From positions 156,120 to 220,119 of the forward strand of contig CAYGKW010000001.1 in the NCBI GenBank assembly GCA_964350815.1: a stretch of 64,000 nucleotides of DNA, in the 5' to 3' direction. The stretch's first letter is position 1, and each line of letters starts with the position of its first letter. This DNA is from an uncultured Rhizobiaceae bacterium (GTDB lineage: Bacteria; Pseudomonadota; Alphaproteobacteria; UBA7879; VGCX01). The notes beneath the pieces are model-generated. The model did no database searches and had not been told where the DNA came from. It saw only the letters and a program-made list of their open reading frames with translations. Both the position numbers and the translations under genes were made by a program. Below are positions 1,130 to 47,242 of this stretch, one piece after another.

Positions 1130-1130
1130 A

Positions 1131-3896: not shown

Positions 3897-4682
3897 TTAT
3901 GGATTTCCTAAAAATTTTGCAATAATAAGTGTACGATCATCATTTGATCGCTGTTGTAGCCGTTCAGATTTTAAGAACTTTTCAAGCTCTGCATCAATCG
4001 TCTTTTTTGATGGCTTATCTTTTAAAAAAACATCAAACGGTTTGAAAAATCCTATATGTGCCTCATTTAATCGGTGATCAATGGCCACATGGTCCAACCC
4101 ATCTGTTGCCAACGCCACAAAATTAATGGGTTCGCGCTGTACAAATGTTTGAACATCTAAGGTTTCATCTGTAACAAAACTTGTTTCATTAACGTATTCC
4201 CCTTTTTTACCAGAAAACACCAAATCATATTCGTCTTCTATGCCGGAAACCAAAAAACCATCACCCACTTGCAAGCCTAACAAACGATCAGGCATAAAGA
4301 TTGCAGCCACTAATGTGCTTGCATAATCATGGGGGTTTTCTTTTTTCTTTTTTGCTTCTTTTCGAATGTCTTCTCTGATAAGCACAGGGATTTGATGCAG
4401 CTGTTGTAAGGTTTTCTCAGATATATCATTTAAATTCAATTCTTTCATATACTGCATTGCTTTTTTTACAGTAAGCTGCGCCCCTTCTTTTGCTTTTGCA
4501 ACAGAACCTGCCCCATCCGCAACAATGGCGATCACCTGATCGGGGCCTATTTTTTCAATTAAATAAGCATCTTGGCATTCGCTATCATGCTGTCTGATTT
4601 GTTTTGCAACGGCACAAGCGCCTGTAATCCATGTCATATCATGTTCCTGTTGCTGCCCAACCTGATACAGAAGGAAGTTCAA
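3897..4682 (-). CDS. PP2C-family Ser/Thr protein phosphatase
   Basis: 261 aa with PP2C metal-binding motifs (IAIVADGAGS, QVGDGFLV, ALATDGL). Directly adjacent to the kinase and overlaps the vWA gene by 44 nt. Confidence 0.65.
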   Translation of the reverse strand: MNFLLYQVGQQQEHDMTWITGACAVAKQIRQHDSECQDAYLIEKIGPDQVIAIVADGAGSVAKAKEGAQLTVKKAMQYMKELNLNDISEKTLQQLHQIPVLIREDIRKEAKKKKENPHDYASTLVAAIFMPDRLLGLQVGDGFLVSGIEDEYDLVFSGKKGEYVNETSFVTDETLDVQTFVQREPINFVALATDGLDHVAIDHRLNEAHIGFFKPFDVFLKDKPSKKTIDAELEKFLKSERLQQRSNDDRTLIIAKFLGNP

Positions 4683-5325
4683 TCATATCACCACCCACCC
4701 TGTTTGTAGAAATACGGCGTACAGAGGATGATAGCCAACGAAATAACTCTTTAAATTTCAGGTCTTGCAATTGGATGGGGGGGCGACTTGCTGGTGCCAC
4801 ACGTTCAAGAATTTCCATATCAGCACCTTCCACAGCAATTGTAAAAAAACTGATACGTTTGTTGGCTTCAAGATCGCTAACACGTGCGGCGGCTTCTTTC
4901 CATTTCTCCCCATCAGTTGGGGCCCCATCTGTAACAAGAAAAACCCAGGGGCGATAATATTGCACGCCATTTGCTCTGTACACTTGTTTACGTTCATCTA
5001 AAGCATCTAAACCCATATCAATCGCACTTCCTAATGGGGTTTTTCCAGCCGTATTTAATATAGGGGGCGTAAAATCATCAATTGTAACAAAAGGTTGTAG
5101 GATATTAACTTCTTTGCCAAAGCTGATAATACTTAACTCTACTCTTAATGCCGCTAATTCATCTTGCTCTACGTCAAATTTAAATTCAGCCAAACCTTGA
5201 TTTAATGATTCAATAGGCGCCCCCTCCATCGAAGCAGAGGTGTCTAGGATTAAAACAACCGGGCATCTATTTTCTGGATTATCCACAAATTCTGGCTTTA
5301 TTAATGACATCATTACCTCGTGCAA
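4639..5325 (-). CDS. von Willebrand factor A (vWA) domain protein, TerY-like
   Basis: MIDAS DxSxS motif in VVLILDTSASMEG, followed by LVTDGAPTDG. No signal peptide or TM, so it looks cytoplasmic. First gene of the operon. Confidence 0.75.
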   Translation of the reverse strand: MHEVMMSLIKPEFVDNPENRCPVVLILDTSASMEGAPIESLNQGLAEFKFDVEQDELAALRVELSIISFGKEVNILQPFVTIDDFTPPILNTAGKTPLGSAIDMGLDALDERKQVYRANGVQYYRPWVFLVTDGAPTDGEKWKEAAARVSDLEANKRISFFTIAVEGADMEILERVAPASRPPIQLQDLKFKELFRWLSSSVRRISTNRVGGDMIELPSVSGWAATGT

Positions 5326-5566: not shown

Positions 5567-6124
5567 ATGGCTGAAAGTACTCAACATAAGTTAGACCGCG
5601 TACGCCCTCCGCGCGTACAAATTACATATGACGTAGAAGTCGGTGATGCAATTGAAATGAAAGAATTGCCTTTCGTTGTAGGTATCATGGCTGATCTTTC
5701 TGGGGACAGAGACCCCGAAAAGGCAATGAAAGCACTTAAAGAACGTAAATTCACAGAAATTGACCGTGATAACTTTAATGATATTATGGCTGACATTACA
5801 CCAAGAGCAGCAATGCGTGTTGAAAACCGCCTTGGTGGTGGTGAAGAAAATGAAGACAGTTCCTTAAGTGTTGCTCTTAACTTTAAAAACATGGAAGATT
5901 TTGATCCGGTAAACATTATTAAACAAGTTGAGCCTATGCGCAAACTATACGAAGCGCGCACTAAGCTTAGTGACCTTATGTCAAAGCTTGACGGTAATGA
6001 TGACTTGGAAGGCATGCTTCAAGATGTTCTTGAAAACACCGAAGTTCGCGAAGAAGTTAAAAAGAACTTAGGTGAAGTTAAGAAGGACGAAGGTGGCGAA
6101 GAAGACGCTAAGCCTAAAAAGTAG
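5567..6124 (+). CDS. tssB: T6SS contractile sheath small subunit TssB (VipA)
   Basis: 185 aa with the canonical N-terminus ...PPRVQITYDVEVGDAIEMKELPFVVGIMADLSGD. Followed directly by tssC. Confidence 0.88.
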   Translation: MAESTQHKLDRVRPPRVQITYDVEVGDAIEMKELPFVVGIMADLSGDRDPEKAMKALKERKFTEIDRDNFNDIMADITPRAAMRVENRLGGGEENEDSSLSVALNFKNMEDFDPVNIIKQVEPMRKLYEARTKLSDLMSKLDGNDDLEGMLQDVLENTEVREEVKKNLGEVKKDEGGEEDAKPKK

Positions 6125-6177: not shown

Positions 6178-7659
6178 ATGGCTGATGAAAAAAAAGCACA
6201 AGGTCAGGCAGCTGAAGGCCAAGAAAACCTAACGGTTTTAGACCAGATTATTCAAAAAGGAAAACTGGCCCGCGACGAAGAACAACTTGTTTATGCACAA
6301 GATATGGTGGATGAATTTGTTGAACAGATTCTTCAAGCAGGGGATACAGTTAGCAACAACACAATTTCATTCATTAACAAGCGCATTCAAGAAGTTGACT
6401 TGCTATTAAGTCAACAGTTAGATGAAATCTTACACCATGAAAACTTTCAAAAAGTGGAAGCAACATGGCGCGGGATGAATTATCTTGTTATGAATTCAGA
6501 AACAAGTACGAAACTTAAACTACGTGTTTTCAACGTTTCCAAAAAAGAACTTCGCGATGATCTTGAAAAAGCAGTAGAATTTGATCAAAGCGTTCTTTTC
6601 AAGAAAATTTACGAGGAAGAATATGGAACATTCGGGGGGAACCCTTATTCATGTCTGGTTGCAGATTATGAATTTGGACCTATTGCCCCAGACATGTCAC
6701 TTCTAACAAAATTGTCAAACGTTGCAGCAGCGGCACATGCCCCTGTGATTTCAGCAGCATCACCTACTTTGTTTGACATGGATGACTTTACTGATTTAGG
6801 TAAGCCTCGTGATTTGGCCAAAATCTTTGAAGGAACAGACAAAATCAAATGGCGTTCATTCCGTGAAAGCGAAGATTCACGTTATGTTGTATTAACAATG
6901 CCACGTGTTTTGATGCGTCTTCCTTACGGGCCGAACACGAATCCTGTAGAAGGCTTGAACTATGAAGAAGTTGTTGATGGTACAACATTAAAAACTTTCA
7001 CATGGGGAAACCCATCTTACATGATGGCACAAAGAATTACTGATGCTTTCGCGAAATATGGCTGGACAGCGGCAATCCGCGGTGTTGAAGGTGGGGGTCT
7101 TGTTGAAGGCTTACCAAGTTACACTTTCAAAACAACTGATGGTGATTTGGCTTTGAAATGCCCAACACAAATTGCAATTACTGACCGTCGTGAAAAGGAA
7201 TTAAGTGATCTTGGCTTCATTTCATTATGTCACTGTAAAGGAACTGACAAAGCGGCTTTCTTTGGTGGGCAAACTGTTCAAAAACCAAAGAAATACAATA
7301 CGCCACAAGCGAATGCGAATGCTGCAACATCTGCACGCATCCCATATTTGCTGGCGGCGTCACGCTTTGCGCATTACATTAAGTCAATCATGCGGGATAA
7401 AATTGGGTCCTTTATGACTCGTGATCAAGTTCAACGCTATTTGCAAACTTGGATCTCTCAGTATGTATTGTTAAATGATGATGCATCACAATCAATGAAA
7501 GCTCGCTTCCCACTTCGTGAAGCCCGTATTGATGTATTTGATGTACCAGGCGAACCTGGAAAATTCCGTGCAACAGTATTCTTAAGGCCGCACTTCCAAT
7601 TGGAAGAATTGACAGCGTCCATCAGGCTTGTTGCTGAATTGCCTCCACCTGCAGGTTGA
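6178..7659 (+). CDS. tssC: T6SS contractile sheath large subunit TssC (VipB)
   Basis: 493 aa that matches the TssC family along its full length (LMRLPYGP, GWTAAIRGVEGGG...). Confidence 0.9.
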   Translation: MADEKKAQGQAAEGQENLTVLDQIIQKGKLARDEEQLVYAQDMVDEFVEQILQAGDTVSNNTISFINKRIQEVDLLLSQQLDEILHHENFQKVEATWRGMNYLVMNSETSTKLKLRVFNVSKKELRDDLEKAVEFDQSVLFKKIYEEEYGTFGGNPYSCLVADYEFGPIAPDMSLLTKLSNVAAAAHAPVISAASPTLFDMDDFTDLGKPRDLAKIFEGTDKIKWRSFRESEDSRYVVLTMPRVLMRLPYGPNTNPVEGLNYEEVVDGTTLKTFTWGNPSYMMAQRITDAFAKYGWTAAIRGVEGGGLVEGLPSYTFKTTDGDLALKCPTQIAITDRREKELSDLGFISLCHCKGTDKAAFFGGQTVQKPKKYNTPQANANAATSARIPYLLAASRFAHYIKSIMRDKIGSFMTRDQVQRYLQTWISQYVLLNDDASQSMKARFPLREARIDVFDVPGEPGKFRATVFLRPHFQLEELTASIRLVAELPPPAG

Positions 7660-7716: not shown

Positions 7717-8247
7717 ATGAAGAACGATATAGTTGTAATGATGGTTGAAAATGTTGACGCAATGTGTGGAAGCGTCAAGTACGAAGGATATGCAAGAGGA
7801 ATTCGTCTTCTTGAATTTCCTGAAGTCCAAACCATTAACTCTGCAGAAGCATCCCACAGTATCGGAATTCGTCCAAACAACGGGGAATGTTTACCCATTA
7901 CTGTACGCACACACTATGACAAAAGTGTTCCTAAAGGCCTTGAAGCCATGGTTAAAGGTACAAACCTAACGAAGATTAGTATTTTCCACCTTGTATCAAC
8001 TGGCGGAGACACACTTACCTTAAATAGGTATATTGAAATGTCAGATGTTTATTTAATTAAATACAGCCTGCACTATTTTGATGCATTTAACCACGAATCA
8101 CCGCAAGGTGGGGTTGCCACATACACATTTAAATTTGATGAGTTTTCATCTGTTGCCAATGTGTTTGATGATCAAATGCAAGAACAAGGTAAAACTGGTT
8201 ACATGACCAACAATACAAAACGCTTAACAGGTAACACAGGCGGATAA
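7717..8247 (+). CDS. hcp: Hcp (T6SS inner tube protein)
   Basis: 176 aa, the right size for Hcp. N-terminus MKNDIVVMMVENVDAMCGSVKYEGYARGIRLLEF.. follows the Hcp pattern. Sits between tssC and tssE. Confidence 0.6.
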   Translation: MKNDIVVMMVENVDAMCGSVKYEGYARGIRLLEFPEVQTINSAEASHSIGIRPNNGECLPITVRTHYDKSVPKGLEAMVKGTNLTKISIFHLVSTGGDTLTLNRYIEMSDVYLIKYSLHYFDAFNHESPQGGVATYTFKFDEFSSVANVFDDQMQEQGKTGYMTNNTKRLTGNTGG

Positions 8248-8271: not shown

Positions 8272-8928
8272 ATGGTAGAAAGACCATACAATTCATTAGA
8301 AAGCAGTCAAGTTAACGATGGGCAGATTGTTGCCTCTCCTACGTGTTTACTAACTTCAACAGTTCATGAAGGTGGGGTTAGCGTTGGAACTATTGAAAAT
8401 GCACATGAAGTATTTTATTACTTTATTTCTGCTTCCCGTGCATCATTACCTGGGTATCATGGACTTCATGAATCCACAGCAAAGATTCGTTTTAGTGCTT
8501 TGAACATTGCATTACACAACAACAGCTATACAGAACCTTTCATGAAGGCTGTATACAGTGGGGCAAGTATTGGGGATATTGAAATCACAAGTCTTCAACA
8601 CTCTGGTGAAGAATCTTTACCAAGCTTCACAATGCAATACAAAAATTGTCGCCCAGTAAGCGGTAAAGTTTCCAGATTAAACGTTGGCGGTCGCTTAGGT
8701 GAAAATGTCATGAGTCGTGGGCATTATGAAGATCGCCTTGATATTGTCAATCGTTCTGTTGATGCAGATGATCCGTATAATCGCACAGCAGAAGTTACAG
8801 CATGTTGCCTTAAAATTCTTTTTGATCAGGTATCCATTGTTTATCATGCATTAACTGAAACTGGTGAAGTTGACGGTCAAATTGCAGGTGGATTTAACTT
8901 GGTTAAAAACACAACAGAGCTTGAATAA
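8272..8928 (+). CDS. Hypothetical protein, possibly a divergent second Hcp-like paralog
   Basis: 218 aa. The central and C-terminal segments (PFMKAVYSGASIGDIEITSLQHSGEE...; TAEVTACCLKILFDQ) resemble Hcp beta-strand patterns. Embedded in the T6SS operon. Confidence 0.3.
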   Translation: MVERPYNSLESSQVNDGQIVASPTCLLTSTVHEGGVSVGTIENAHEVFYYFISASRASLPGYHGLHESTAKIRFSALNIALHNNSYTEPFMKAVYSGASIGDIEITSLQHSGEESLPSFTMQYKNCRPVSGKVSRLNVGGRLGENVMSRGHYEDRLDIVNRSVDADDPYNRTAEVTACCLKILFDQVSIVYHALTETGEVDGQIAGGFNLVKNTTELE

Positions 8929-8935
8929 ATAGGTC

Positions 8936-9493
8936 GTGGCAAGAAAGTGGACAGACAAAGGGGCAGATGCCCCCTTATTCGACAAGCTTCGTGATGAAAA
9001 TCCACAAACCAAAGAAGAACATCCTATCTTTAAAAAATATGATCGCAAGGAACTTTTAGTATCTGTACAACAAGAAGTTTCAAACATCTTAAACACCCGT
9101 TGTAAAATGCCATACGAAGAGTACAAAAATTTGGATCCTTCTGATCTAGAGTATGGATTTCCTGAACTATTTGGCCTGCCTGACCAATCTTATGCTGACC
9201 CACGATCCCCAGAAGGGGCAGATAAAATGGCAGATTTAATTGCCAATGCCATTGAAATATTTGAACCTAGGTTAGCAAATATTTCTATCGAAATACAAGA
9301 TTTCCACAAACAAAATCAATCTTTATCTGTTGGTGTCAGTGGAGATTTAGTGATAGGGGAAATACGCGAACCAATTTCATTCCCTGTTTCTGTTCAAGAC
9401 TATGGATCTGTCGCAACGCAAGAAAAAGTTGGGTATGACACAACTGCCAAAATAGAGTATAATAAAAATGATTCTGAGGGGGCAGATGAATGA
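8936..9493 (+). CDS. tssE: T6SS baseplate protein TssE (gp25-like)
   Basis: Carries the LFDKLRDE, ILNTR, FGLPD and FEPRL motifs typical of TssE. Apparent GTG start. Its 3' end overlaps tssF. Confidence 0.8.
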   Translation: MARKWTDKGADAPLFDKLRDENPQTKEEHPIFKKYDRKELLVSVQQEVSNILNTRCKMPYEEYKNLDPSDLEYGFPELFGLPDQSYADPRSPEGADKMADLIANAIEIFEPRLANISIEIQDFHKQNQSLSVGVSGDLVIGEIREPISFPVSVQDYGSVATQEKVGYDTTAKIEYNKNDSEGADE

Positions 9494-11298
9494 ATGACTT
9501 TCACGAAAAACATTTACAGTATTATCAGCGTGAAATGTCCTTCCTACGTAAAATGGGGGGCATCTTTTCTGCCAAATACCCTAAAATTGCCAAACGTCTT
9601 GGCCTTAGTGATACAACTGCGTCAGACCCGCATGTTGAACGACTCATTGAATCTTTTGCCTATCTAACTTCCTATTTACAAAAAGATATAGACAACCAAT
9701 TTCCACGCATTTCATCCGCGTTATTAAATACATTATACCCCCAGCAAGTAAGCTTGATTCCGCCCATGAGTATTTGCCAATTTGAACCGGACCCAGAGGC
9801 TGGATTAACAACTGCCTACGATATTCCACGAAACTTTTCCATGTATGTTGAAGGCGATACAGGGGATGTCAGCCGATTTAAAACAGCCTACCCTGTTGAA
9901 ATGTGGCCTATTAAAGTAACTGATATTGCCATGGTAAAATCAAATCTTTATGATCTTGGGGAAGAGCTGACAAAGCATACTTATGTTTTACGCATTAAAT
10001 TAAAATCTTTATCCGAAGATTTAAGTATCTTAAATTTAAAAAAACTTCGGTTTTTTATTAACATGCCGCGTGCACAAGCGAATGTTTTGTATCAACTTTT
10101 GTTTGAAGAATCTATGAAAATTGGTGTGGTTGGGGCAGATGATAAACCAGCCTATATCACCCCAAAGGATAGTATTTCACAAGTTGGGTTCTCGCCTGAT
10201 GAATCTGTTTTACATGTTCCCAAAAATGGACACCCGGCCTATGCCCTTTTACAGGAATACTTCTTATTTCAAAAAAAGTTTATGTTTTTTGATATTGATA
10301 ACCTAAATTTCAACAACGCCGGACAAACAGCAGAAATTTTAATTCCTTTGTGTCATTCACAAGATGCCAAAAGTTTGGTTTTTGGGGAACGATCCCTTCT
10401 TTTAAATTGCAGCCCTATTGTTAATTTATTTTATAAAACATCTGAACCCATTCGCCTGGATCACCAACGTGTTGAATATCGTTTAATTGCTGACCATCGG
10501 CGTGAAATGACAACAGAAATTCACAGCATTGACCGTGTCTTTTGTTCAGGGGAAGAGGAAAAAGACACAATTGAAATTGATCCTTATTTTTCATACAACC
10601 ATCATTCTTTAAGCGAAGATAAAATGGGGTTTTGGCATGCACGACGGGTCCCTGCAGCAAATAAAAACATACCCGGAACAGATATGCAAATTTCTTTTGT
10701 AAACTTAAATTTTTCACCAAATAGTCCCCCTGTTGATGTGGCTTATGCCCGGGTTTTGTGTACAAACCGACAACTTGCGCCGACTGTCCCTGCGAATGCA
10801 ATTTTAAATGAAGATGAGGGAACCCCAACCAAGTCTATACGTTGTTTATATCAACCTACTGATACAACATATCCTTCCGAAGAAGGGGCAACCCAATGGC
10901 AATTGATATCCCAACTTGCTTTGAATTATTTATCTTTGTCTAACAATGAAAAAAGCTTGGACGCCTTAAAGGAAATGTTACGCTTGTATTCCGGTGGCGG
11001 GAAAAAAATTAATGATGTTGAAATTAACAGCATGATAAAAATGGATTGCGAACCAATTGTTCGCCGATTTGGAAAAGATGCTTGGCGCGGTTTTACAAAA
11101 GGAACATCTGTCACCCTTACAGTTGATGAAGGTGCCTCTGCAAGCTTAGGATCTTTCTTATTTTCATCTGTGCTTGCCCATTTTTTTGGTTTATATACAA
11201 CCATAAATTCTTTTGTAGAGGTATCTATTAAAAGCACACGACGGGAAGGAGTATGGAAAAAATGGCCACCGATCGCCGGCGCACAAGAACTTCTGTAG
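9490..11298 (+). CDS. tssF: T6SS baseplate protein TssF
   Basis: 602 aa with an N-terminus YYQREMSFLRKMGGIFSAKYPKIAKRL typical of TssF. Lies between tssE and tssG. Confidence 0.8.
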   Translation: MNDFHEKHLQYYQREMSFLRKMGGIFSAKYPKIAKRLGLSDTTASDPHVERLIESFAYLTSYLQKDIDNQFPRISSALLNTLYPQQVSLIPPMSICQFEPDPEAGLTTAYDIPRNFSMYVEGDTGDVSRFKTAYPVEMWPIKVTDIAMVKSNLYDLGEELTKHTYVLRIKLKSLSEDLSILNLKKLRFFINMPRAQANVLYQLLFEESMKIGVVGADDKPAYITPKDSISQVGFSPDESVLHVPKNGHPAYALLQEYFLFQKKFMFFDIDNLNFNNAGQTAEILIPLCHSQDAKSLVFGERSLLLNCSPIVNLFYKTSEPIRLDHQRVEYRLIADHRREMTTEIHSIDRVFCSGEEEKDTIEIDPYFSYNHHSLSEDKMGFWHARRVPAANKNIPGTDMQISFVNLNFSPNSPPVDVAYARVLCTNRQLAPTVPANAILNEDEGTPTKSIRCLYQPTDTTYPSEEGATQWQLISQLALNYLSLSNNEKSLDALKEMLRLYSGGGKKINDVEINSMIKMDCEPIVRRFGKDAWRGFTKGTSVTLTVDEGASASLGSFLFSSVLAHFFGLYTTINSFVEVSIKSTRREGVWKKWPPIAGAQELL

Positions 11299-12311
11299 TA
11301 GAGCGTGCTTATAAAGACGCAGATAAATTTGAATTTCATGCAATGGTCAAATTGTTGGAAAGCATGGAGAAAGACTGTACCCCTTTAGGCGAAGGCCCAG
11401 ATCCAACAAAAGAAGCATTACGCCTGCAAGCGCGTGTTGCCGAAGGGTTTCCAAACACAGATATTTTTAAACTTATTGACCCCAAAACAAAAGAAATTCC
11501 ACCTTTATTGATAACTAATTTCTTGGGCATTGCTGGGGCACATGGCCCCTTGCCTTCCCCTTATACCCAGCAGATAATAGAACGTACATCAAGACGTGAT
11601 ACAGGGTTCAGAGATTTTATTGATATCTTTAATCATCGGTTAATATCTTTATTACATCGCATACGAAAAAAACATTGGATTGGCATTTCCAACCAGCCTT
11701 CAGAAGAATCCTTAATGGGAAAATGTTTGAAGGCTTTACTTGGAATCTTTAACCCTTATTTAGAAGACCGCTTAGGTGTTCCTGACCAAAGCTTAACACA
11801 TTATGCCGGTTTATTATGGCAACGCCCTAGATCTGCATTTGGACTACGTCAACTTCTTGAAGGTTTTTTTCGAATGCCTGTTGAAGTTCAAGAATTGAAA
11901 GGCAAATGGAATTTTGTACCCCACGACCAACTTACAAGTATTGGAAGTCAGGGAAAATTTAATGTGCTTGGGCAATCTGCCGTTATTGGCTCAAGGTTTT
12001 GGGATCAACAAGCCCTATTCACTGTAAAAATTGGCCCAATGGATTTAGATCAGTATGTTGACTTCTTGAAACCTGGAAAATCATGGCGTACAATCTGTAG
12101 TATAATTCGATATTATGTAGGTAATGATCAAGATTTCATGATAAACTTAGTTTTAAAAAAAGAACAGGTTCCAAAGCCCAGGCTGGGTTATGGTGTTGCT
12201 ATTGGATGGACAAACTGGTTGAATCGCACAAAAACTGAATCCTATATAGATGATAATCAATGCCAATTAACAACACGTTCTTTTAAAGTTTCAGCAGGAG
12301 GCCATAATTAA
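11253..12311 (+). CDS. tssG: T6SS baseplate protein TssG
   Basis: N-terminal FEFHAMVKLLE motif, equivalent to FDFFQAVRLLE in TssG. Overlaps the tssF 3' end, so the start may be at 11262 instead. Confidence 0.75.
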   Translation: MEKMATDRRRTRTSVVERAYKDADKFEFHAMVKLLESMEKDCTPLGEGPDPTKEALRLQARVAEGFPNTDIFKLIDPKTKEIPPLLITNFLGIAGAHGPLPSPYTQQIIERTSRRDTGFRDFIDIFNHRLISLLHRIRKKHWIGISNQPSEESLMGKCLKALLGIFNPYLEDRLGVPDQSLTHYAGLLWQRPRSAFGLRQLLEGFFRMPVEVQELKGKWNFVPHDQLTSIGSQGKFNVLGQSAVIGSRFWDQQALFTVKIGPMDLDQYVDFLKPGKSWRTICSIIRYYVGNDQDFMINLVLKKEQVPKPRLGYGVAIGWTNWLNRTKTESYIDDNQCQLTTRSFKVSAGGHN

Positions 12312-14974
12312 TGCAAAATTTACAATCTTTAATTGGAAACTTAAACACAACTTGCAAAAGATGTTTGGAAGAATCTGCACAATTATGTATTACCAATACA
12401 AATGCAACTGTTGATATTGAACATTTACTATTTCAAATTCTGGAAAAGCCTGCAACGGATCTTTCTGTTATTGCAAAATACTATGAAATTGATTTAAAGC
12501 GTGCAAAGCAACAGCTTCAAAATGCAATAAATGATTTCAAACGTGGCAACAATAAAACACCTTCCATGTCTGCTCAGTTAGTTAAATTATTGGAAAGGGC
12601 GTGGGTTATCACTTCCTTGAATCTGAAACAAACTCAGGTACGCTCAGCCGCGATATTAATGGCGATTTTAAAAACTGAAGAATTATTAGGCGTAATTGTA
12701 AATAGCTGCCAAGAATTATTAAAAATTCCACGTAATAAACTGGAAGAAGATATTCTAGAATTAATTAAATCCAGCCCAGAAGATGTAGGGGAAGGAAATT
12801 TAAGCAGCAATACAGGGGGCAGCAAAAGCAGTTCTTCTGATGGAAAATCCCCGACGCAAGCCTTGGATAAATTTACAATTGATCTTACACGCCAAGCCCG
12901 TGAAGGGAAAATTGATCCCATTGAAGGGCGTGATTCAGAAATCCGCCAGATGCTGGATGTTTTGGGACGCCGGCGTCAAAACAACCCCATTTTAACAGGG
13001 GATGCAGGTGTTGGGAAAACAGCAGTTGTTGAAGGCCTTGCCTTGCGCATTGCAAATGGGGATGTTCCTGATAGTTTGAAAAAAGTAAGCATTCGCACTT
13101 TGGATCTTGGTTTACTTGAAGCCGGGGCTGGTATGAAAGGTGAATTTGAAAACAGGCTGAAATCCGTTATTCAAGAAGTACAAAGTTCTTTAACCCCAGT
13201 TATTTTGTTTATTGATGAAGCCCATACATTAATCGGCGCCCAACAAAATGCCCAAAATGATGCAGCCAACCTTTTAAAGCCTGCTTTGGCCAGGGGTGAA
13301 TTGCGAACGATTGCTGCAACCACTTGGGATGAATATAAAAAATTCTTTGAAAAAGACGCAGCCCTTACCCGTCGTTTCCAAGTTATAAAAGTTGAAGAGC
13401 CTGACGAAGAAACAGCTGTGAAAATGTTGCGCTGTTTAACAGAAAAGTTAGAACACCATCACAAAGTTTTGATACTGGATTCTGCCATTAAAGATGCTGT
13501 TCGTTTGTCCACTCGATATATTGGGGGCCGCAAATTACCAGACAAGGCAGTCAGTGTTTTAGATACTGCCTGCGCACGCGTACACTTAGCACAAAACGCA
13601 ACCCCTGAAGCCGTTGAAACATTAACCCGTGATTTGGAACTTTTAGAAATTGAAAAATCACGCTTACAAAAAGAAGAATTAAGTGGCCATGTTCACCAAG
13701 ATCGATTGGCCCAAATTTCTGTCGATGCGCAAACAAAACAAAAAGAATTGGATGAGGTAAAAAAAACTTGGGAAGAAGAATTAAACCTTGTAAAAGAAAT
13801 TAACCAACTTCACAACAACATCTTAGAAATAAATGAAAAAAATGGCCCTGACCATCACGACCTAAAAGATTTAAAAATAAAAATCAGTAAACTTAAAAAA
13901 GATTTGGAAACCAAACAAGGGGAAAAAGGGTTGGTCCCTGCATGTGTTGATGGCAATGTTGTTGCCCAAGTTGTTGCAGGGTGGACGGGCATTCCTTTAG
14001 GTAAAATGTTGCGCGATGAAATCAATACCGTGTTAACCTTAAAAGATATTATGGCCAATCGCTTGATCGGGCAAAAACAAGCTGTGGATACCATTGCAAA
14101 ACATATTGTGACATACCGTGCAAACTTAGATGAGCCTGGAAAACCAGTAGGCGTCTTTTTATTAGTTGGACCCAGCGGTATTGGGAAAACAGAAACAGCC
14201 TTGGCTTTGGCTGACACACTATATGGCGGGGAACGAAATCTTGTCACCATTAACATGTCTGAATACCAAGAATCTTATACTGTTTCTTCTTTGAAAGGGT
14301 CGCCTCCCGGATATGTAGGATATGGTGAAGGGGGTGTTCTGACCGAAGCCGTCAGACGCAACCCATACAGCGTTGTTCTTTTAGATGAAATTGAAAAAGC
14401 CCACCCGGACGTAATGGAATTATTCTATCAAGTTTTTGATAAAGGAATCTTGGAAGATGCAGAAGGTATTGAAATTGATTTTAAAAATACCGTTATTTTA
14501 ATGACAACCAATTTGGCATCTGAAACCATTATGAAGGAATGCAAAAATCCGAAAAAAATGCCGGATGCCAAGAAGGTTTCAGATACCATTCGTCCTGAAT
14601 TGGCTGCCCATTTTAAACCTGCTTTGCTTGGGCGCATGACAATTGTTCCGTATTATCCTTTAACAAGTGAAGAAATATCTGAAATTGTAAAACTTAAATT
14701 GGATCGCATCAAAAGTCGATTTGAAGGAAATCATGGGGCTGACTTTTCTTACAGCAAAGATGTCATTAAATTCATCACAGATCGATGTGATGATCCTGAT
14801 TCCGGGGCACGTAATATTGATTACGTTATTAACCAAAACTTACTTCCCCTTTTATCTGCAGAAGTTTTAAAACATATTGCTGATGAAACACCCTTTGGCA
14901 GTATAAAAGTTTCCATCAAACGGGATGAATTTATATGTGATTTTGAGGCATCAAAAATTGCAAACAAAGCTTAA
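12311..14974 (+). CDS. clpV: T6SS AAA+ ATPase ClpV (TssH)
   Basis: 887 aa with two Walker A motifs (GDAGVGKTAV and GPSGIGKTE) and ClpB-like architecture. Its ATG overlaps the tssG stop. Confidence 0.9.
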   Translation: MQNLQSLIGNLNTTCKRCLEESAQLCITNTNATVDIEHLLFQILEKPATDLSVIAKYYEIDLKRAKQQLQNAINDFKRGNNKTPSMSAQLVKLLERAWVITSLNLKQTQVRSAAILMAILKTEELLGVIVNSCQELLKIPRNKLEEDILELIKSSPEDVGEGNLSSNTGGSKSSSSDGKSPTQALDKFTIDLTRQAREGKIDPIEGRDSEIRQMLDVLGRRRQNNPILTGDAGVGKTAVVEGLALRIANGDVPDSLKKVSIRTLDLGLLEAGAGMKGEFENRLKSVIQEVQSSLTPVILFIDEAHTLIGAQQNAQNDAANLLKPALARGELRTIAATTWDEYKKFFEKDAALTRRFQVIKVEEPDEETAVKMLRCLTEKLEHHHKVLILDSAIKDAVRLSTRYIGGRKLPDKAVSVLDTACARVHLAQNATPEAVETLTRDLELLEIEKSRLQKEELSGHVHQDRLAQISVDAQTKQKELDEVKKTWEEELNLVKEINQLHNNILEINEKNGPDHHDLKDLKIKISKLKKDLETKQGEKGLVPACVDGNVVAQVVAGWTGIPLGKMLRDEINTVLTLKDIMANRLIGQKQAVDTIAKHIVTYRANLDEPGKPVGVFLLVGPSGIGKTETALALADTLYGGERNLVTINMSEYQESYTVSSLKGSPPGYVGYGEGGVLTEAVRRNPYSVVLLDEIEKAHPDVMELFYQVFDKGILEDAEGIEIDFKNTVILMTTNLASETIMKECKNPKKMPDAKKVSDTIRPELAAHFKPALLGRMTIVPYYPLTSEEISEIVKLKLDRIKSRFEGNHGADFSYSKDVIKFITDRCDDPDSGARNIDYVINQNLLPLLSAEVLKHIADETPFGSIKVSIKRDEFICDFEASKIANKA

Positions 14975-14984
14975 AAGTTAACAA

Positions 14985-17552
14985 ATGGCTGGACTTATTT
15001 CCCAAGAAAATACCTATCTGACCATCACAACAAAATTGGGTGCAGATAAAATTATCCTTAATCATTTTAAGGCTGAAGAAAAATTAAATGGGCTTTTTGA
15101 ATTTAATTTAGAACTTTATATCCCATATGCCACGGATGCCAAAAATTATGACTTAGACTTTACAAAACTTATTGAAACTGAAGTTACCATTACCCTGACT
15201 TTAGGAAAAAAAATACGTTACTTTCATGGATTAATTACTGAATTAATACAAGGTCCGACAGTTGCAACTGGGATGGAAAAAATGCAACGCACCCATGAAC
15301 GGACTTATTTTTATGCCAAAGTACATCCCACGGCCTGGTTAATGCAATTAACTGAAAACTGTGAAATTCATCAAAATAAATCGGCGATGGATATTATTAA
15401 AGAATTGTTAGGCAAACATAAAATTACTTTTAAAGACCTAACATCCAAGCGCGGAAAATTAAAACGCGAATACTGTGTTCAATATAACGAAAGTGATTTT
15501 GCCTTTATTTCAAGATTAATGGAAAATGAAGGCATTTATTATTTTTTCAAACATGAAAAAGCCAAACACACGATGTATCTTGCTGACGGCGGGAAACCTT
15601 GGGAGAAGCATACGGACAAAGATTTAGCAACTGTTACAGTTTATAACACCCAACACCCAACACCTGTACAATTCAGTCTGTACGATATGCGTGTATCAAA
15701 ACAAATTGTTCCTTCAAGCTTTACTTATAATGATTATGATTTTGAAAAACCGACCACTAAATTAAAGGCAGAATCAAAAGGCGAAGGAAAAGGTCGGGAT
15801 TATTATCACTATCCAGGGAAATATATTGTACAAAAAAATGGGATGGCTCTGACGGATATGCGTTTAGAATCCCTTGAATACCCATCTGATGCCATCCATT
15901 CAAAATCAGATATTCCTATGTTTGAAATTGGCCATTCTTTTAAATTGGATAATGCCTTAAGAAAAGATATTAACAAAAAAGAATTTGTTATTTTTTCTAT
16001 TCACCATGAAGCCAAAATTCAAGCAGAACCTGATGAAAATAATGAAGGGGAAAAGCTTGTAAAAACAGAATATGATGGCGAAGTTGTTTATGAAAACAAG
16101 GTTTGCTTTTTCAGCAAAGACCTTCCTTACCGTCCCGCACTAAAAACTCCGTGCCCAAAAATTCACGGCACCCAAACGGCAACCGTTTCTGGTAAAGCCG
16201 GTGAAGAAATTTGGACAGATAAGTATGGTCGTGTTCTTCTTAAGTTTCATTGGGATCTAAGCCCCACAAAAGATGATAAAGTTTCGTGCTTTGTCCGTGT
16301 TTCCCAGGCCTGGACAGGCAAACAATGGGGGGTTTTGTTTACCCCACGTGTCGGCCAAGAAGTTGTTGTCACATACCTAAATGGGAACCCTGACAAACCC
16401 CTGGTGACTGGGTGTGTTTATAATGGGGATAACCTTCCCCCCTATTTACCGGCTGAAAAAACGAAAAGCACCATTAAAACAAATACAAGCCCTAAAGGTG
16501 GTGGTTTTAACGAATTACGATTTGAAGATAAAAAAGACGCTGAGGAAGTTTTTATCCATGCCCAAAAAGATTACAACACAACTGTTTTAAATGGGGAACG
16601 TACTGTTACAATTGAAGGTGCTGAAGATTGTGGCCATGATAAATTAACCATTCGCAAAGGGGATCGTACCTTTTTAATTGAGGAAGGCAGTCAATCCGAT
16701 ACCTTAAAAAAAGGGGACAAGTCCACCCTTCTTGAAAAAGGTAATGATACAGAAACATTAAAAGATGGAAATCAAACCATTACCCTTGAAAAAGGGAACC
16801 AAGCAACAACCCTGAAAAAAGGAAATCAATCTGTTACCTTAAAAGGGGGCAATCAAGAAATTGATATCAAAGGAAATCAAACTGAAACCATTTCTGGAAA
16901 TCAAACCGTCACAATAAAGGGGAATAGAAAAGTTTCAGTTACTGGCAATGATACTTTATCCGTTAAAGGAAATATGACCGTTGATGTTATGGGAAATATT
17001 ACAGCCAAAGCAAAAGGTAATGTTACAATTGAGGCCATGGGCATGATCAATATTAAAACACCAACTGGTATGATAACAGTTGAAGGAGGCATGATCACTG
17101 CAAAGTCCAAGATGCTTACGACAGACACACAAGGTCCTGCAACACACAGTGCCATGATGATGACGATAGAATCAAAAGGACCTTTGGCAATGAAAGGATC
17201 CCCTATTGCAATTGGCGCACCAATGATGACAATGGCAGCCGGCGGATCTGCCGCAATGACAACGGATACTGGCGGTGGTCTTGAAATGGGTGGCGGTGGA
17301 GATGTTGGCTTAAGTTCAACAGGCCCCATGAAAATGAGCAGTACCGCGCCCGCAAAAATGGATAGTCCCGCTGGTGTAAAAATTTCTTCTGGTGCAAGTT
17401 CTATTGACTTAAAGGCAGCAATGGGCACAATTAAATCTGCTATGTTAACGGTTGAAGGTTCTGGAATGATGGCAGTAAAAAGTGGTGGGATGTTAAATGT
17501 TCAAAGTGGTGGATTGGTTAATATTAAAGGCTCAATGGTAATGATAGGATAA
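14985..17552 (+). CDS. vgrG: VgrG spike protein with a C-terminal gp5-like beta-helix
   Basis: 855 aa. N-terminal gp27/gp5 region, then reiterated (T/S)xKGNQ/GNxT octapeptide-like repeats at aa 560-700 that form a beta-helix, then a Gly/Met-rich tail. Confidence 0.85.
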   Translation: MAGLISQENTYLTITTKLGADKIILNHFKAEEKLNGLFEFNLELYIPYATDAKNYDLDFTKLIETEVTITLTLGKKIRYFHGLITELIQGPTVATGMEKMQRTHERTYFYAKVHPTAWLMQLTENCEIHQNKSAMDIIKELLGKHKITFKDLTSKRGKLKREYCVQYNESDFAFISRLMENEGIYYFFKHEKAKHTMYLADGGKPWEKHTDKDLATVTVYNTQHPTPVQFSLYDMRVSKQIVPSSFTYNDYDFEKPTTKLKAESKGEGKGRDYYHYPGKYIVQKNGMALTDMRLESLEYPSDAIHSKSDIPMFEIGHSFKLDNALRKDINKKEFVIFSIHHEAKIQAEPDENNEGEKLVKTEYDGEVVYENKVCFFSKDLPYRPALKTPCPKIHGTQTATVSGKAGEEIWTDKYGRVLLKFHWDLSPTKDDKVSCFVRVSQAWTGKQWGVLFTPRVGQEVVVTYLNGNPDKPLVTGCVYNGDNLPPYLPAEKTKSTIKTNTSPKGGGFNELRFEDKKDAEEVFIHAQKDYNTTVLNGERTVTIEGAEDCGHDKLTIRKGDRTFLIEEGSQSDTLKKGDKSTLLEKGNDTETLKDGNQTITLEKGNQATTLKKGNQSVTLKGGNQEIDIKGNQTETISGNQTVTIKGNRKVSVTGNDTLSVKGNMTVDVMGNITAKAKGNVTIEAMGMINIKTPTGMITVEGGMITAKSKMLTTDTQGPATHSAMMMTIESKGPLAMKGSPIAIGAPMMTMAAGGSAAMTTDTGGGLEMGGGGDVGLSSTGPMKMSSTAPAKMDSPAGVKISSGASSIDLKAAMGTIKSAMLTVEGSGMMAVKSGGMLNVQSGGLVNIKGSMVMIG

Positions 17553-17556
17553 AATT

Positions 17557-18525
17557 ATGACAAAAAATATTTCCCCAGAATTTTTAGAAAAACTTCGTCT
17601 GATACGTAAAAAAAACGAAGTTGATAAAACCAATGAAAATGACATCAATAGTGTTGAATCTTATAATGCTTATGATGTCGTTGATAAAGTTGATCTTCCC
17701 GAAGGGTTTGACCCTGGTGAAGCAGAAGAAAATGCACAAGAAGAAAGTCTTGAGGGTCCTTTCCCACCTGACATGACCCAGGCCCCAAAGAACCCTGCTG
17801 CTGAAAAGAAAGAGGAGGATATAGATCCAAATGCCTTGGATTCAGGGTATCAAGAAATCAAAGATGCTGATGACAATATCATTCAAAAAATTCCCTATGA
17901 GAATAAAAAAATCCATGGAGATGTCGAAATTTTTGATAGCCAAGGAAATCTTATTCAAACCATACCCTACAATCAGGGAATAATTGAAGGTGTTTCAAAA
18001 GCATACAACAGTGATGGTAATATAATGCAAGAAGTTACCTTCAAGGCTGGTCAAAAAAATGGTCGGGGGATTTTTTATAATAATGGTGTCAAAGCAGCGG
18101 AGATGGTTTATGAAAATGATGAAATTAATGGGCCTTCTGTTTTTTATACACCAAGCGGTGGAATAAGCACCATTTGTTATTATAAAGATAGTTTAATGCA
18201 TGGCGAAATGACAGCTTATGATGATAAAAAAGCGATTGTAAAAAAAACCATGTATGAAGAAGGAAAAATGCATGGCCCTTCGTATGTCTATTATCCCAGC
18301 GGTCAAATTTTTGAAGAAGCTTATTATGAAAAGGATCAACTATCTGGCAAAGTTCTTAATTATTATGAAAATGGAGAAGTTCTTTCAGAAAAAAAATATG
18401 AAGAAGGTAAATTAATTTCAGAATTAAGATACGACACAAATGGCAAACGGACAGATGATAATGAATATGAAGGGGACTATCCCAAATCAGCCCGCAATGC
18501 CTTAAAAGATATTGAAGGATCATAA
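17557..18525 (+). CDS. MORN-variant / YwqK-family repeat protein; VgrG-linked cargo, adaptor or immunity candidate
   Basis: 322 aa with an acidic N-terminal region and then about 8 tandem Y..NG...E.-type repeats (YENGEVLSEKKYEEGKLISELRYDTNGK). Starts 4 nt after the vgrG stop. Confidence 0.5.
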   Translation: MTKNISPEFLEKLRLIRKKNEVDKTNENDINSVESYNAYDVVDKVDLPEGFDPGEAEENAQEESLEGPFPPDMTQAPKNPAAEKKEEDIDPNALDSGYQEIKDADDNIIQKIPYENKKIHGDVEIFDSQGNLIQTIPYNQGIIEGVSKAYNSDGNIMQEVTFKAGQKNGRGIFYNNGVKAAEMVYENDEINGPSVFYTPSGGISTICYYKDSLMHGEMTAYDDKKAIVKKTMYEEGKMHGPSYVYYPSGQIFEEAYYEKDQLSGKVLNYYENGEVLSEKKYEEGKLISELRYDTNGKRTDDNEYEGDYPKSARNALKDIEGS

Positions 18526-18912
18526 ATGCCACAACTTACATCTACAGGGGGTCTTGCAAAATGCATTTTTGGGGTGGCGCCAAGCCCCCTAAACTTTTTA
18601 CCTGTCTATAAGGTTATGGCAACAACACCTGTTGGAAATATTAATGATTTCAAACCATTTGCAAATATTATTCCTTTTGGAATGTGCATGAGCCCGGGAA
18701 ATCCTGCAGTTATTGCTGCCACGGCCGCTGCGTTGGGTGTGCTGACACCGATGCCCTGCACCCCTAATATTTCAACTCCCTGGATACCTATGGCCCCCAC
18801 AAAAATGGTTGGGAATATGCCGGTTGTACCGTCTACCAGCATGCAAATATGTAAATTTGGGGGACTAGTTACCATTACTTTTCCAGGACAAGTCACTGTA
18901 CAAGTAAGCTAG
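18526..18912 (+). CDS. PAAR-like DUF4280 family protein
   Basis: 128 aa with the conserved PFGMC, NPAV and PCTP pattern of DUF4280 (PAAR-like). Its ATG overlaps the stop of the preceding gene. Confidence 0.55.
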   Translation: MPQLTSTGGLAKCIFGVAPSPLNFLPVYKVMATTPVGNINDFKPFANIIPFGMCMSPGNPAVIAATAAALGVLTPMPCTPNISTPWIPMAPTKMVGNMPVVPSTSMQICKFGGLVTITFPGQVTVQVS

Positions 18913-18963
18913 CATTTCTTCAAAATTAATGATAATTTATTATGTATAGAAATATAATTCATT

Positions 18964-19947
18964 ATGAAAAGATTAACAAAAACATTATTTATCGGAACTG
19001 GTTTTTTAGCTGCAGGGTTATATCTTGCAAGCAACTTTAATGATCCTCAAAATCCTTCTGTCATGTCCACCCTTAAACACGTCAGTGTTGCTGTGCGTAA
19101 TGCACTTCAGCAGTATGTGAAATTTTCTGATGATGGGGTGTCTATTGGTAAGCAAGAAAAAAAACAAGAAAAATACAGCCCTACTGATATAAGAAGCGCC
19201 ACACATATGGATGATGATGAAGTAACAGATGCCCAAAAGTTTTTCAATCGTCTTGCCGGTTTAGATCCAGAGGAATTGGCTAAGCAAAAAGAAGATAAAA
19301 AGAAAGCAGAAGAAGAGGCCCTAAAAGCAGCGGAAGAGGCTGCAAAAAAAGAAGGGGAAACAGCCGAAGATAAAGATGCAGGAGAAGAACTTCCCGAATC
19401 ACTTTGGCCCATGAAGCGTAAACGTAAAGGTATTATTGAAATTACCGGACACAAAACTGGGGCAGTATATAATAAAGGAGCCCTTCCTTATGGCCCACCC
19501 CCTTTTGTTAAGTCTGAAATTTTTTCTGATGAAGCGCGCCTACAAATTTATAATGATCCAGAAGCAGAAACATCTAAAAAAATAAAAATAGAGGATCAAG
19601 ATGAAATTAACTATGGGCCAGATTCTATTATTAACATAACTGATCAAAAACCATTTCCTGATAAAATTAAGGCTCCACTTATGCAGCATGGAGATGCATA
19701 TACGGTTCAGCTTGGCGCTTATGAAACAAAAAATGATGCACGTAAAATGGCTGATAAATTGGTTACCAAAGGATTTAATGCAGGGGTTTACCAAGGCGAC
19801 ACATCCCATAACAACTGGTATTTTGTTAGATTAAATTCAAAAGAAACTGAACAAGAAGCAATGGATCACGCCCAAGAAATTATGGAACAACATGGTATTT
19901 TCCCCCTTGTTGTCCCCACTAAAAAAGAAGAACGTAGAATACAGTAG
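18964..19947 (+). CDS. Membrane-anchored SPOR-domain protein (FtsN/DedD-like architecture)
   Basis: N-terminal TM (LFIGTGFLAAGLYLA), a Glu/Lys-rich linker and a C-terminal SPOR-like segment (YTVQLGAYETKNDARKMADKLVTKGFNAGVY...WYFVRL). Confidence 0.5.
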   Translation: MKRLTKTLFIGTGFLAAGLYLASNFNDPQNPSVMSTLKHVSVAVRNALQQYVKFSDDGVSIGKQEKKQEKYSPTDIRSATHMDDDEVTDAQKFFNRLAGLDPEELAKQKEDKKKAEEEALKAAEEAAKKEGETAEDKDAGEELPESLWPMKRKRKGIIEITGHKTGAVYNKGALPYGPPPFVKSEIFSDEARLQIYNDPEAETSKKIKIEDQDEINYGPDSIINITDQKPFPDKIKAPLMQHGDAYTVQLGAYETKNDARKMADKLVTKGFNAGVYQGDTSHNNWYFVRLNSKETEQEAMDHAQEIMEQHGIFPLVVPTKKEERRIQ

Positions 19948-19957
19948 AGGTCTTAAA

Positions 19958-20485
19958 ATGAAAAAATTATGGATTTTATTATTTGTTTTAACAGCAGGAT
20001 GTGAAACCGTCACAAACTATGTCTTTGAAGATACAGACATTGAATTTATTGATGAATTAACATTGATAGGGTCTAAAAATATGAACAACAGAAAACCCCT
20101 TCGTGTTGATTTTGTCGTTGTGAAGCACCCTGTCGTTGCCCAACAAATAGGGCGCATTTCAGCTGATAACTATATGCGTAATCGCAAGCAGTTAAAACAA
20201 GACTATCCAAAACATATTAAGTTTAATTCTTATGAACTTGTCCCAGGCCAATCAATTGTTAAAGATTTAAGTTACCCTAAGAAAGATGTGGTTGCTGCCT
20301 TTATCTTTGCAGATTTTGACAATGAAAACGTAAACCGTTGGTCCATTTTTTCTGCTGATCATGTTGTTGTGAAATTTCTGGAAAACACCTTAAAAATCAC
20401 GTCCCGCAATCAAGGTGAAGAAGAAAAAATTAAACCTAGACAATTATCTGAGGATATTGTGATTATTGAAAGTAACCCCTTATAG
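19958..20485 (+). CDS. Lipoprotein, TssJ candidate
   Basis: Lipobox in MKKLWILLFVLTAGC, with the start reassigned to the internal ATG at 19958. About 175 aa. Segments RVDFVVVKHPVVAQQ and AAFIFADFDNEN resemble TssJ. Last gene of the T6SS block. Confidence 0.4.
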   Translation: MKKLWILLFVLTAGCETVTNYVFEDTDIEFIDELTLIGSKNMNNRKPLRVDFVVVKHPVVAQQIGRISADNYMRNRKQLKQDYPKHIKFNSYELVPGQSIVKDLSYPKKDVVAAFIFADFDNENVNRWSIFSADHVVVKFLENTLKITSRNQGEEEKIKPRQLSEDIVIIESNPL

Positions 20486-47037: not shown

Positions 47038-47242
47038 GATCACCCCCCTCTTTAACAGTCGTATTATTTTCAATAAAATTCATTAAGTCCGACAATCGAT
47101 ACTTTGCTAATCGCCCCACCTTGACCATCGGCAACCCATAACGTTTGTTACAAGCCCATACGGCCAAAGTACCTTCTGTTGTTCCTAAAAGTTCAGCTGC
47201 TTCTTTCCGATTGAGAAGCTTATTAGTTTGTTCTATTTTCAT
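47030..47242 (-). CDS. alpA: AlpA-family transcriptional regulator / excisionase (Phage_AlpA HTH)
   Basis: 70 aa, LLNRKEAAELLGTTEGTLAVWACNKRYGLPMVKVGRLAKYRLSDL, the classic prophage CP4-57 AlpA fold. Confidence 0.75.
   Translation of the reverse strand: MKIEQTNKLLNRKEAAELLGTTEGTLAVWACNKRYGLPMVKVGRLAKYRLSDLMNFIENNTTVKEGGDHE

Follow-up and report, generated by a model that had tools for sequence, protein, structure and literature searches.

A MORN-repeat gene and a DUF4280 gene behind a toxin-less vgrG: a candidate TseF-type spike-end module in an uncultured Rhizobiaceae bacterium

Genes at the locus

A 64,000-nucleotide stretch of DNA from an uncultured Rhizobiaceae bacterium (assembly GCA_964350815.1, contig CAYGKW010000001.1, positions 156,120 to 220,119; hereafter the window) carries a type VI secretion system (T6SS) gene cluster that ends with vgrG and, directly behind it, two further genes. 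The first of the two encodes a protein built of MORN_2 repeats (PF07661) and the second a PAAR-like protein of the DUF4280 family (PF14107). The pair is a lineage-specific variant of a known but little-studied effector/tip pair. Coordinates are those of the window unless another locus is named, and the window genes lie on the forward (+) strand unless stated otherwise. Loci collected for comparison are numbered from L001.

The vgrG gene (tssI, 14985-17552) encodes 855 amino acids with matches to Phage_GPD (1e-67), Phage_base_V, Gp5_trimer_C and Gp5_C, and to TIGR03361 (8e-159). It is followed by the MORN_2 gene (17557-18525, 322 amino acids) and the DUF4280 gene (18526-18912, 128 amino acids), placed exactly where an earlier note on this DNA, made without database searches, had put them. 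The tight coupling to vgrG described in that note also holds. The gap between the vgrG stop and the MORN_2 start is four nucleotides and an AGGA lies within the final vgrG codons. The two genes of the pair do not overlap at TAAATG as the note had proposed; the TAA of the MORN_2 gene directly abuts the ATG of the DUF4280 gene with a spacer of 0 nucleotides. Both open reading frames (ORFs) are real genes under purifying selection: compared with the closest relative, L010, the ratio of nonsynonymous to synonymous substitution (dN/dS) is 0.09 (MORN gene) and 0.07 (DUF4280 gene).

The VgrG ends in ...IKGSMVMIG and has no C-terminal toxin or adaptor domain. Pfam and NCBIfam scans found no toxin domain in the VgrG, the DUF4280 protein or the flanking genes, in line with the earlier statement that no toxin gene is adjacent. 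Near its C-terminus the VgrG has a Met/Gly/Ser-rich insertion of about 90 amino acids (16900-17450, amino acids ~700-820), which is also present in L010; the VgrGs of L001 and L007 (759-766 amino acids) are without it.

The MORN-repeat protein

The MORN protein matches PF07661 with 68.2 bits (gathering cut-off 29.6; E 1.5e-19). A structural model was made with AlphaFold2 (AF2) from the family alignment and has a mean predicted local distance difference test score (pLDDT) of 77.6. Three parts can be recognized. The first (amino acids 1-22, 17557-17622) is a conserved amphipathic N-terminal segment, modeled as a helix over residues 7-22. Its motif, [IF][ST]PEFLxxL[RK], is retained in 10-12 members of the family (proteins of 245-358 amino acids). 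The second (amino acids 23-92, 17623-17832) is an acidic, Pro-rich, disordered linker of 70 residues with 21 D/E, 5 K/R and 8 P, a net charge of -16 and a pLDDT of 31-46. The model shows residues 23-88 as disordered. The linker varies in length and sequence and is gapped and unalignable across the family. The earlier note had described residues 1-110 as an acidic, unstructured N-terminus. This holds for residues ~23-92, which are acidic with pLDDT below 50, but not for residues 1-22, the conserved predicted helix.

The third part (amino acids 93-322, 17833-18525) consists of approximately eight MORN_2 β-hairpin repeats (amino acids 96-292) and a short C-terminal helix (311-317). The repeats form 18 strands with pLDDT >90, arranged in an elongated single-layer β-hairpin sheet. 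The top Foldseek matches of the model are eukaryotic MORN1 and junctophilin (E 8e-9 to 1e-5), and the same search found no enzyme or catalytic fold. A sequence search of the PDB gave matches confined to the MORN part of SET7/9. In the Pfam scan neither DUF2169 nor DUF4150 matched either protein of the pair, and in the NCBIfam scan the MORN protein had no match to IglF or any other relevant model. A large protein collection did not contain the exact sequences of the window proteins.

Judged from the alignments, the N-terminal helix and acidic linker are specific to the window lineage. Use of the motif as a modular secretion tag was considered and rejected. A regular-expression scan of the collected loci found the motif in MORN genes only, so there is no evidence of modular use. 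Also rejected was a terminal "FLxxLK" helix in common between the window protein, where it is N-terminal, and L020, L022, L029, L023 and Paraburkholderia phymatum, where it is C-terminal; it is too short and variable, is missing in Azospirillum and differs in TseF, the Pseudomonas aeruginosa protein described below.

The DUF4280 protein

The DUF4280 protein matches PF14107 over profile positions 4-109 of 109 with 79.7 bits (cut-off 26.3; E 3e-22). Both earlier domain assignments, MORN_2/YwqK-type and DUF4280, are therefore borne out by scores above the Pfam cut-offs. The model spans amino acids 8-122 of 128 and the protein carries no extension. In an alignment of 20 sequences from several phyla the cysteines C13, C54, C78 and C109 are invariant. 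Conserved cysteines of DUF4280 proteins, four in number, are metal ligands according to Rigard et al. and Lays et al. The segment N59-P80 is hydrophobic and hyperconserved, and a segment AAATAAALGVLTPMPC is invariant in the same alignment.

The family is large, with 4,389 homologues, and is conserved at 55-60% identity across Myxococcota, Firmicutes and Verrucomicrobiota. The NCBIfam model of IglG matches the window protein weakly and below threshold (53.9 bits; cut-off 200; 1.9e-14). A profile search of the PDB returned marginal matches, 9jg8_B (E 0.11) and the SalCis10 tip protein (E 0.54), and the AF2 model made from the 20-sequence alignment was unusable (pLDDT 39).

The same gene order elsewhere and the likeness to TseF

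The order vgrG, MORN_2 gene, DUF4280 gene also occurs in L001, L007, L010, L020, L021, L022, L029 and Cupriavidus sp. P-10. The VgrGs of L020 and L021 are 37% identical to that of the window, and at least eight independent lineages show MORN genes paired with toxin-less VgrGs. The triad of P. phymatum STM815 lies in the T6SS-b cluster, assigned by its authors to subtype i4a, as vgrG Bphy_5985, a "YwqK family antitoxin" Bphy_5986 and a "PAAR-like" Bphy_5987. The last two match MORN_2 (5e-14) and DUF4280 (4e-35), and the window proteins find them by tblastn with E values of 1e-16 and 2e-20. The three genes also adjoin one another in Azospirillum brasilense Sp7 and P. aeruginosa, there with the DUF4280 gene inverted. 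The window VgrG is 33-35% identical to its P. phymatum, Azospirillum and P. aeruginosa counterparts. Together with gene co-linearity, this VgrG identity makes the window T6SS appear i4a-like.

In P. aeruginosa a gene for 178 amino acids follows tssI, beside tssF, tssG and tssH of the H3 cluster, and is annotated "toxin-antitoxin system YwqK family antitoxin". By its length and position this gene matches TseF (PA2374). TseF is a protein of 178 amino acids with MORN motifs, encoded beside vgrG3. It was retained by VgrG3 in a glutathione S-transferase (GST) pull-down, and its release was reduced in clpV3, hsiB3C3 and hcp3 mutants (Lin et al.). It binds the Pseudomonas quinolone signal (PQS) in outer-membrane vesicles for iron uptake, with FptA and OprF as receptors, and most of its homologues co-localize with a VgrG (Lin et al.). 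TseF is regarded as the sole known substrate of the H3-T6SS. PA2375 of the H3 locus is a DUF4280 protein, and P. fluorescens F113 encodes a TseF homologue, Tfe5, downstream of vgrG3 and in linkage with a small PAAR gene. A P. aeruginosa record deposited as a 91-kb plasmid (L033, NZ_CP137515.1) contains the distal H3-T6SS genes, from tssF to vgrG with a TseF-sized gene and DUF4280, along with chromosomal-looking neighbours, lldA among them. Either a piece of chromosome was wrongly assigned here, or the record may represent the vgrG3 region that is triplicated in strain PALA8.

BLASTP aligned the window MORN protein with TseF at 5e-16 and 24% identity over 107 amino acids (identity range 22-24%), and profile comparison of the MORN family with TseF by hhalign gave a probability of 98.4% (E 5e-15). 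The window DUF4280 protein is 48% identical to the P. aeruginosa counterpart of PA2375. The pair is accordingly read, with moderate confidence, as a TseF-type, VgrG-loaded exported binding protein and a PAAR-like cap, together forming the spike-end module of an i4a-like T6SS.

The names given by annotation pipelines point elsewhere, to a YwqK-type immunity protein that is either an orphan or directed against an unrecognised toxin. The repeats are indeed of the type found in the YwqK family; family members, and TseF itself, are automatically named "YwqK family antitoxin"; and fast evolution is also typical of immunity genes. The T6SS of Holosporales and of the Sneabacter plasmid contains a conserved [ywqK-vgrG] module whose vgrG-adjacent gene is termed immunity or antitoxin by George et al. 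and by Midha et al., in both papers by name alone. The defining test fails nevertheless, because no toxin is present: neither the VgrG nor the DUF4280 protein nor any neighbour has a toxin domain in any locus examined. The DUF4280 protein would make a poor toxin itself, since across phyla it is one of the best-conserved proteins that the locus encodes, unlike a polymorphic toxin, and the MORN gene precedes this supposed partner rather than following it. The characterized homologue, TseF, is an exported substrate. An immunity function is thus highly improbable. In published genome surveys a YwqK gene stands beside vgrG in all of the reduced Holosporales and Sneabacter endosymbionts, which was counted in favor of a cargo role.

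The earlier note had left the MORN protein as cargo, adaptor or orphan immunity protein. Of these, cargo is best supported, through the counterpart TseF, and orphan immunity is unlikely given the recurrent pairing with toxin-less VgrGs. The link to TseF and the H3-T6SS and the conserved N-terminal helix had escaped that note. Pfam matches were found for both proteins, and their relatives do not lie consistently outside T6SS loci. The observation of the note is confirmed and its interpretation supported in part.

Relatives of the MORN gene and a recombination-replaced block

The family of the window MORN protein was recovered by exhaustive search among 16,737 MORN_2 matches; word-indexed searches returned almost none of it. 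The closest relative is L010, with 82% identity in the MORN protein, followed by L001 (53%) and the alphaproteobacterial metagenome-assembled genomes L007, L011 and L012, which include a TARA contig (49%). Further loci with a MORN gene behind vgrG are L006, L008, L013 and L014. In seven loci from four clades the MORN start lies -1 to 5 nucleotides from the vgrG stop. Five of the seven have AGGA inside the last vgrG codons and the other two have GGAGGA. Wherever the context is visible the preceding vgrG is toxin-less and its product ends in ...KGSMVM[IL]G or ...LLGG (β-helix).

L008 and L013 also show a family-10 glycosyltransferase gene (fucosyltransferase-like; L008 5379-6539, L013 4456-5607) in the place expected for clpV, between tssG and vgrG. 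Their MORN genes are followed downstream by genes for NfeD-like membrane proteins and, in L013, for a kinase-like protein (APH, weak).

Comparison with L010 revealed a bounded difference. Nine neighbouring genes have 95-99% protein identity and a synonymous divergence (dS) of 0.19-0.34, whereas the MORN gene has 82% and a dS of 1.10 and the DUF4280 gene 91% and a dS of 0.93. In 100-nucleotide windows, nucleotide identity is 58-91% inside ~17,700-18,870, a block comprising the MORN body and DUF4280 (17700-18870), and 89-100% in the flanks (17,300-19,972), which are mostly ~95% identical. The first 22 MORN codons lie outside the block, with a dS of 0.16 and a nonsynonymous divergence (dN) of 0; the linker has a dN of 0.218. 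High dS with low dN/dS indicates replacement by recombination and not faster protein evolution, and the sequence comparison thus points to the MORN body and DUF4280 gene as a block replaced by recombination relative to L010. Such a pattern is that expected of effector modules swapped downstream of vgrG and was counted in favor of a cargo role.

In five of six genome pairs compared, no gene of the locus evolves faster than the MORN gene, the exception being L001 versus L007 at 79%. Between the window and L001 the MORN proteins are 53% identical and the products of the other genes 72-91%. This divergence bears on the idea that the MORN protein is a T6SS accessory unrelated to the spike tip, for instance a regulator of baseplate or sheath assembly, whose place after vgrG reflects operon history. 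Regulators are usually as conserved as core genes, and the MORN gene is the most divergent of the locus. Its specific recurrence beside DUF4280, which extends to loci outside T6SS and to inverted arrangements, and the binding of TseF to VgrG3 also speak against this idea. In its favor, the MORN gene is kept beside vgrG where DUF4280 is not adjacent (L006, L008, L013), it is retained in strongly reduced endosymbiont genomes, and many T6SS-associated genes of unknown role exist. On balance a role apart from the tip is improbable.

MORN and DUF4280 genes beyond T6SS

The DUF4280 gene is linked to vgrG or a contractile injection system in the window, as it is in the T6SS-linked loci that were fetched with DUF4280. 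L004, L023, L024, the Cohnella-type loci and Paraburkholderia caribensis are exceptions. A MORN gene stands beside DUF4280 in at least 12 of the 17 plasmid or chromid records with a DUF4280 match. A local hidden Markov model (HMM) of the MORN array, run on sets of 386, 177 and 528 reading frames from DUF4280-fetched loci, matched only genes at most one gene away from DUF4280.

The Cohnella-type loci (Cohnella L016 and L017, and L025 and L030) have a 128-amino-acid DUF4280 gene followed by a gene for a protein of 610-694 amino acids with an N-terminal transmembrane (TM) segment and a MORN array. The arrays are canonical (PF02493, 3e-24 and 3e-21), and this module is a DUF4280 system in Gram-positive bacteria without T6SS. 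It is divergent from a HAMP-guanylate cyclase gene, adjoined by genes for an acetyltransferase and a cNMP-binding HEAT protein, and has Pvc16_N/AAA or Tail_P2_I genes, of the kind belonging to extracellular contractile injection systems (eCIS), nearby. The eCIS-like contig L027 has genes for a MORN protein, Pvc16, DUF4280 and sheath, in this order. In L023 a MORN_2 gene for 194 amino acids abuts DUF4280, with no recognizable vgrG nearby. A different architecture is seen on the IMG/VR contig L028 (2459-4228 of that contig), where a protein of 589 amino acids combines a phage tail-fibre N-terminal domain, a carbohydrate-binding module and a C-terminal DUF4280 domain. No paper in the searched literature contains both "DUF4280" and "MORN".

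The recurrent adjacency also suits the main rival explanation, that the MORN protein is a non-secreted chaperone or adaptor of the DUF4280 tip, which shields the hydrophobic DUF4280 protein or docks it on VgrG and stays in the cell. The order vgrG, partner, PAAR-like protein is that of vgrG/DUF2169/DUF4150 and of vgrG/iglF/iglG; a MORN gene accompanies DUF4280 outside T6SS (Cohnella, L025, L030, L027); DUF4280 is very hydrophobic, with its invariant AAATAAALGVLTPMPC segment; and relative to L010 the two genes form one divergent block. Against it, TseF is reported to be released from cells and to bind VgrG3, not a PAAR protein. Several DUF4280 genes have no MORN neighbour, several vgrG/MORN pairs have no DUF4280 nearby, and a 70-residue acidic disordered linker would be unusual in a dedicated chaperone. 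A chaperone that stays behind is unlikely, with somewhat more in its favor than an immunity or accessory role. A chaperone function and export are compatible, since a partner bound to the tip may be exported as well.

A wider proposal, which is tentative and rather doubtful, is that MORN-repeat proteins have from the outset been the general partners of DUF4280 tips in contractile injection systems at large (T6SS-i4a, eCIS-like and Cohnella-type). The MORN sheet would be a tip-docking module carrying lineage-specific payloads, here the N-terminal helix on its acidic tether. The iron scavenging of TseF would be a derived case, and many "YwqK antitoxin" genes would be mis-annotated spike-tip cargo or partners.

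A model for the pair

In the favored reading, that of a TseF-type exported binding protein and its cap, the DUF4280 protein would cap the blunt end of the VgrG trimer in the manner of a PAAR protein. The MORN protein, as a non-enzymatic β-hairpin repeat counterpart of TseF, would be made in stoichiometric amounts with VgrG through translational coupling. It would bind the VgrG/DUF4280 spike and leave the cell with it when the sheath contracts. The N-terminal helix on its flexible acidic linker could provide a second contact that helps loading onto the spike or baseplate. Outside the cell the MORN sheet may act by binding and not as an enzyme, its partner being a ligand of lipidic or membrane-associated nature or a surface protein. 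VgrG binding and T6SS-dependent secretion come from the literature on TseF only; for the window protein they would follow by analogy.

Several observations weigh against this reading. First, secretion of TseF in the H3 mutants is reduced and not abolished. Second, orthology to TseF rests mainly on position because the identity is 22-24%, within a repeat family. The TseF ligand PQS and the receptors FptA and OprF are expected to be Pseudomonas-specific and are not to be assumed for the window protein. Third, the pair is not obligatory in cis. No DUF4280 gene was found within the fetched flanks of L006, L008 and L013. Conversely, DUF4280 genes without a MORN neighbour occur in L004 (cvpA, DUF4280, SPOR gene, lipoprotein gene, with no T6SS genes within 10 kb upstream), in Archangium (DUF4280 followed by a TssA-like gene), in L024, in Caballeronia (tssH, DUF4280, vgrG) and in P. 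caribensis. Fourth, L007 shares 85-90% identity with the window and L010 in the DUF4280 protein but only 49-50% in the MORN protein. Because MORN and DUF4280 affinities differ in this way among L001, L007 and L010, the two genes can also have separate histories and do not always travel together. Finally, the MORN partners of the Cohnella type carry a TM segment, a poor fit to a passenger role.

The pair belongs to a recurrent, partly characterized module and is not categorically new. The general DUF4280/MORN association, including that outside T6SS, the recombination cassette and the family with the N-terminal extension are not stated in the searched literature. The gene class has spread under the name "toxin-antitoxin system YwqK family antitoxin", the TseF counterpart included. 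The mislabelling is systematic, and endosymbiont genome papers have built immunity stories on the name. If the endosymbiont YwqK genes are relatives of the window family, they may encode the main or only T6SS cargo of these bacteria and would be candidate host-interaction factors. The adjacency of MORN and DUF4280 genes suggests a pairing of cargo and tip, for which P. aeruginosa, P. phymatum and A. brasilense are tractable carriers.

Surrounding genes

The T6SS genes of the window are co-linear: tssB (5567-6124, Pfam VipA), tssC (6178-7659, VipB), hcp (7717-8247, T6SS_HCP), an ORF for 218 amino acids (8272-8928), tssE (8936-9493, GPW_gp25), tssF (9490-11298, TssF), tssG (11253-12311, TssG) and clpV/tssH (12311-14974, AAA_2/ClpB_D2-small), with the vgrG/MORN_2/DUF4280 triad at the end. 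The gene order is the same in L001, L007 and L010. Neither Pfam nor NCBIfam gave a match for the 218-amino-acid ORF; L001 and L007 have an equally long gene at the matching position. None of tssA, tssK, tssL and tssM was seen among the scanned ORFs, which reach to ~47 kb of the window.

Behind the pair are two further genes. A promoter and terminator scan between DUF4280 and the first of these found nothing decisive. The first (18964-19947) encodes a membrane-anchored SPOR-domain protein of 327 amino acids (PF05036, 7e-11) with an N-terminal TM segment. A SPOR protein also follows DUF4280 in L004, L020 and, weakly, L022, and in L020 and L022 vgrG, MORN, DUF4280 and SPOR occur together. The second (19958-20485) encodes a lipoprotein of ~175 amino acids (MKKLWILLFVLTAGC...) with a lipobox. 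Identification of the lipoprotein as TssJ was tried and rejected, the match to TIGR03352 remaining sub-threshold (16.2 bits, cut-off 31.6; E 0.0064) and the protein having no sequence match in the PDB. Homologues of the lipoprotein occur only in the window clade and in L004, in the latter behind the SPOR gene. The two proteins could be a peptidoglycan-binding membrane accessory of the T6SS and a divergent TssJ. The lipoprotein gene is the last before ligA, recN and bamD, which are convergent to the cluster.

Divergent from tssB, on the minus strand (41-5325), are genes for a VWA protein, a PP2C phosphatase, a 921-amino-acid kinase-domain protein and a 362-amino-acid protein without assigned identity. 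This set looks like a threonine-phosphorylation regulatory module for T6SS. Farther away, also on the minus strand (37780-44587), a gene for a protein of 2109 amino acids with DUF637 and a C-terminal Colicin-DNase/WHH nuclease domain precedes a SUKH (SMI1/KNR4) immunity gene. The GC content there is 0.42-0.46 against ~0.36 elsewhere, and the region, which adjoins a primase/helicase-like gene (45091-47073), is probably a polymorphic toxin island gained by horizontal transfer.

Comparison with known systems

Bacillus subtilis YwqK is the immunity protein of the LXG deaminase toxin YwqJ. It shares with the window protein the MORN_2 repeat type (PF07661), a protein-binding scaffold. It differs in that it follows and neutralizes a toxin gene, whereas the window gene follows vgrG with no toxin and its product has the extra N-terminal helix and linker.

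Two systems resemble the window in gene order. In Francisella the order is vgrG, iglF, iglG. IglG is a DUF4280 PAAR-like protein, and IglF binds IglG and is secreted. Binding is mediated by an N-terminal helix extension of IglG, which the window DUF4280 protein lacks, and the Francisella T6SS is of a different subtype. The DUF2169/PIPY (DUF4150) systems likewise place an accessory gene between vgrG and a PAAR-like gene, and in them a non-PAAR tip and its dedicated partner strictly co-occur. DUF2169 however is unrelated to MORN in fold and family and is a non-secreted chaperone, and DUF4280 is often found without a MORN partner.

The T6SS-b of P. phymatum is like the window both in the triad and in the upstream gene order. 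The MORN proteins of P. phymatum, Cupriavidus and Azospirillum are 221-251 amino acids long and have no N-terminal extension, some having a short C-terminal amphipathic helix instead. Their triads, unlike that of the window, are not followed by SPOR and lipoprotein genes.

The TseF locus has in common with the window a MORN gene directly after vgrG and beside a stand-alone DUF4280 gene for 128-131 amino acids, distal to tssE-tssF-tssG-clpV-vgrG, and both MORN proteins are without an enzyme domain. TseF, at 178 amino acids, has neither the N-terminal helix nor the acidic linker, and three annotated motifs compared with about eight repeats in the window protein. The DUF4280 gene is convergent in P. 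aeruginosa, whereas in the window it is co-directional with the MORN gene and abuts it.

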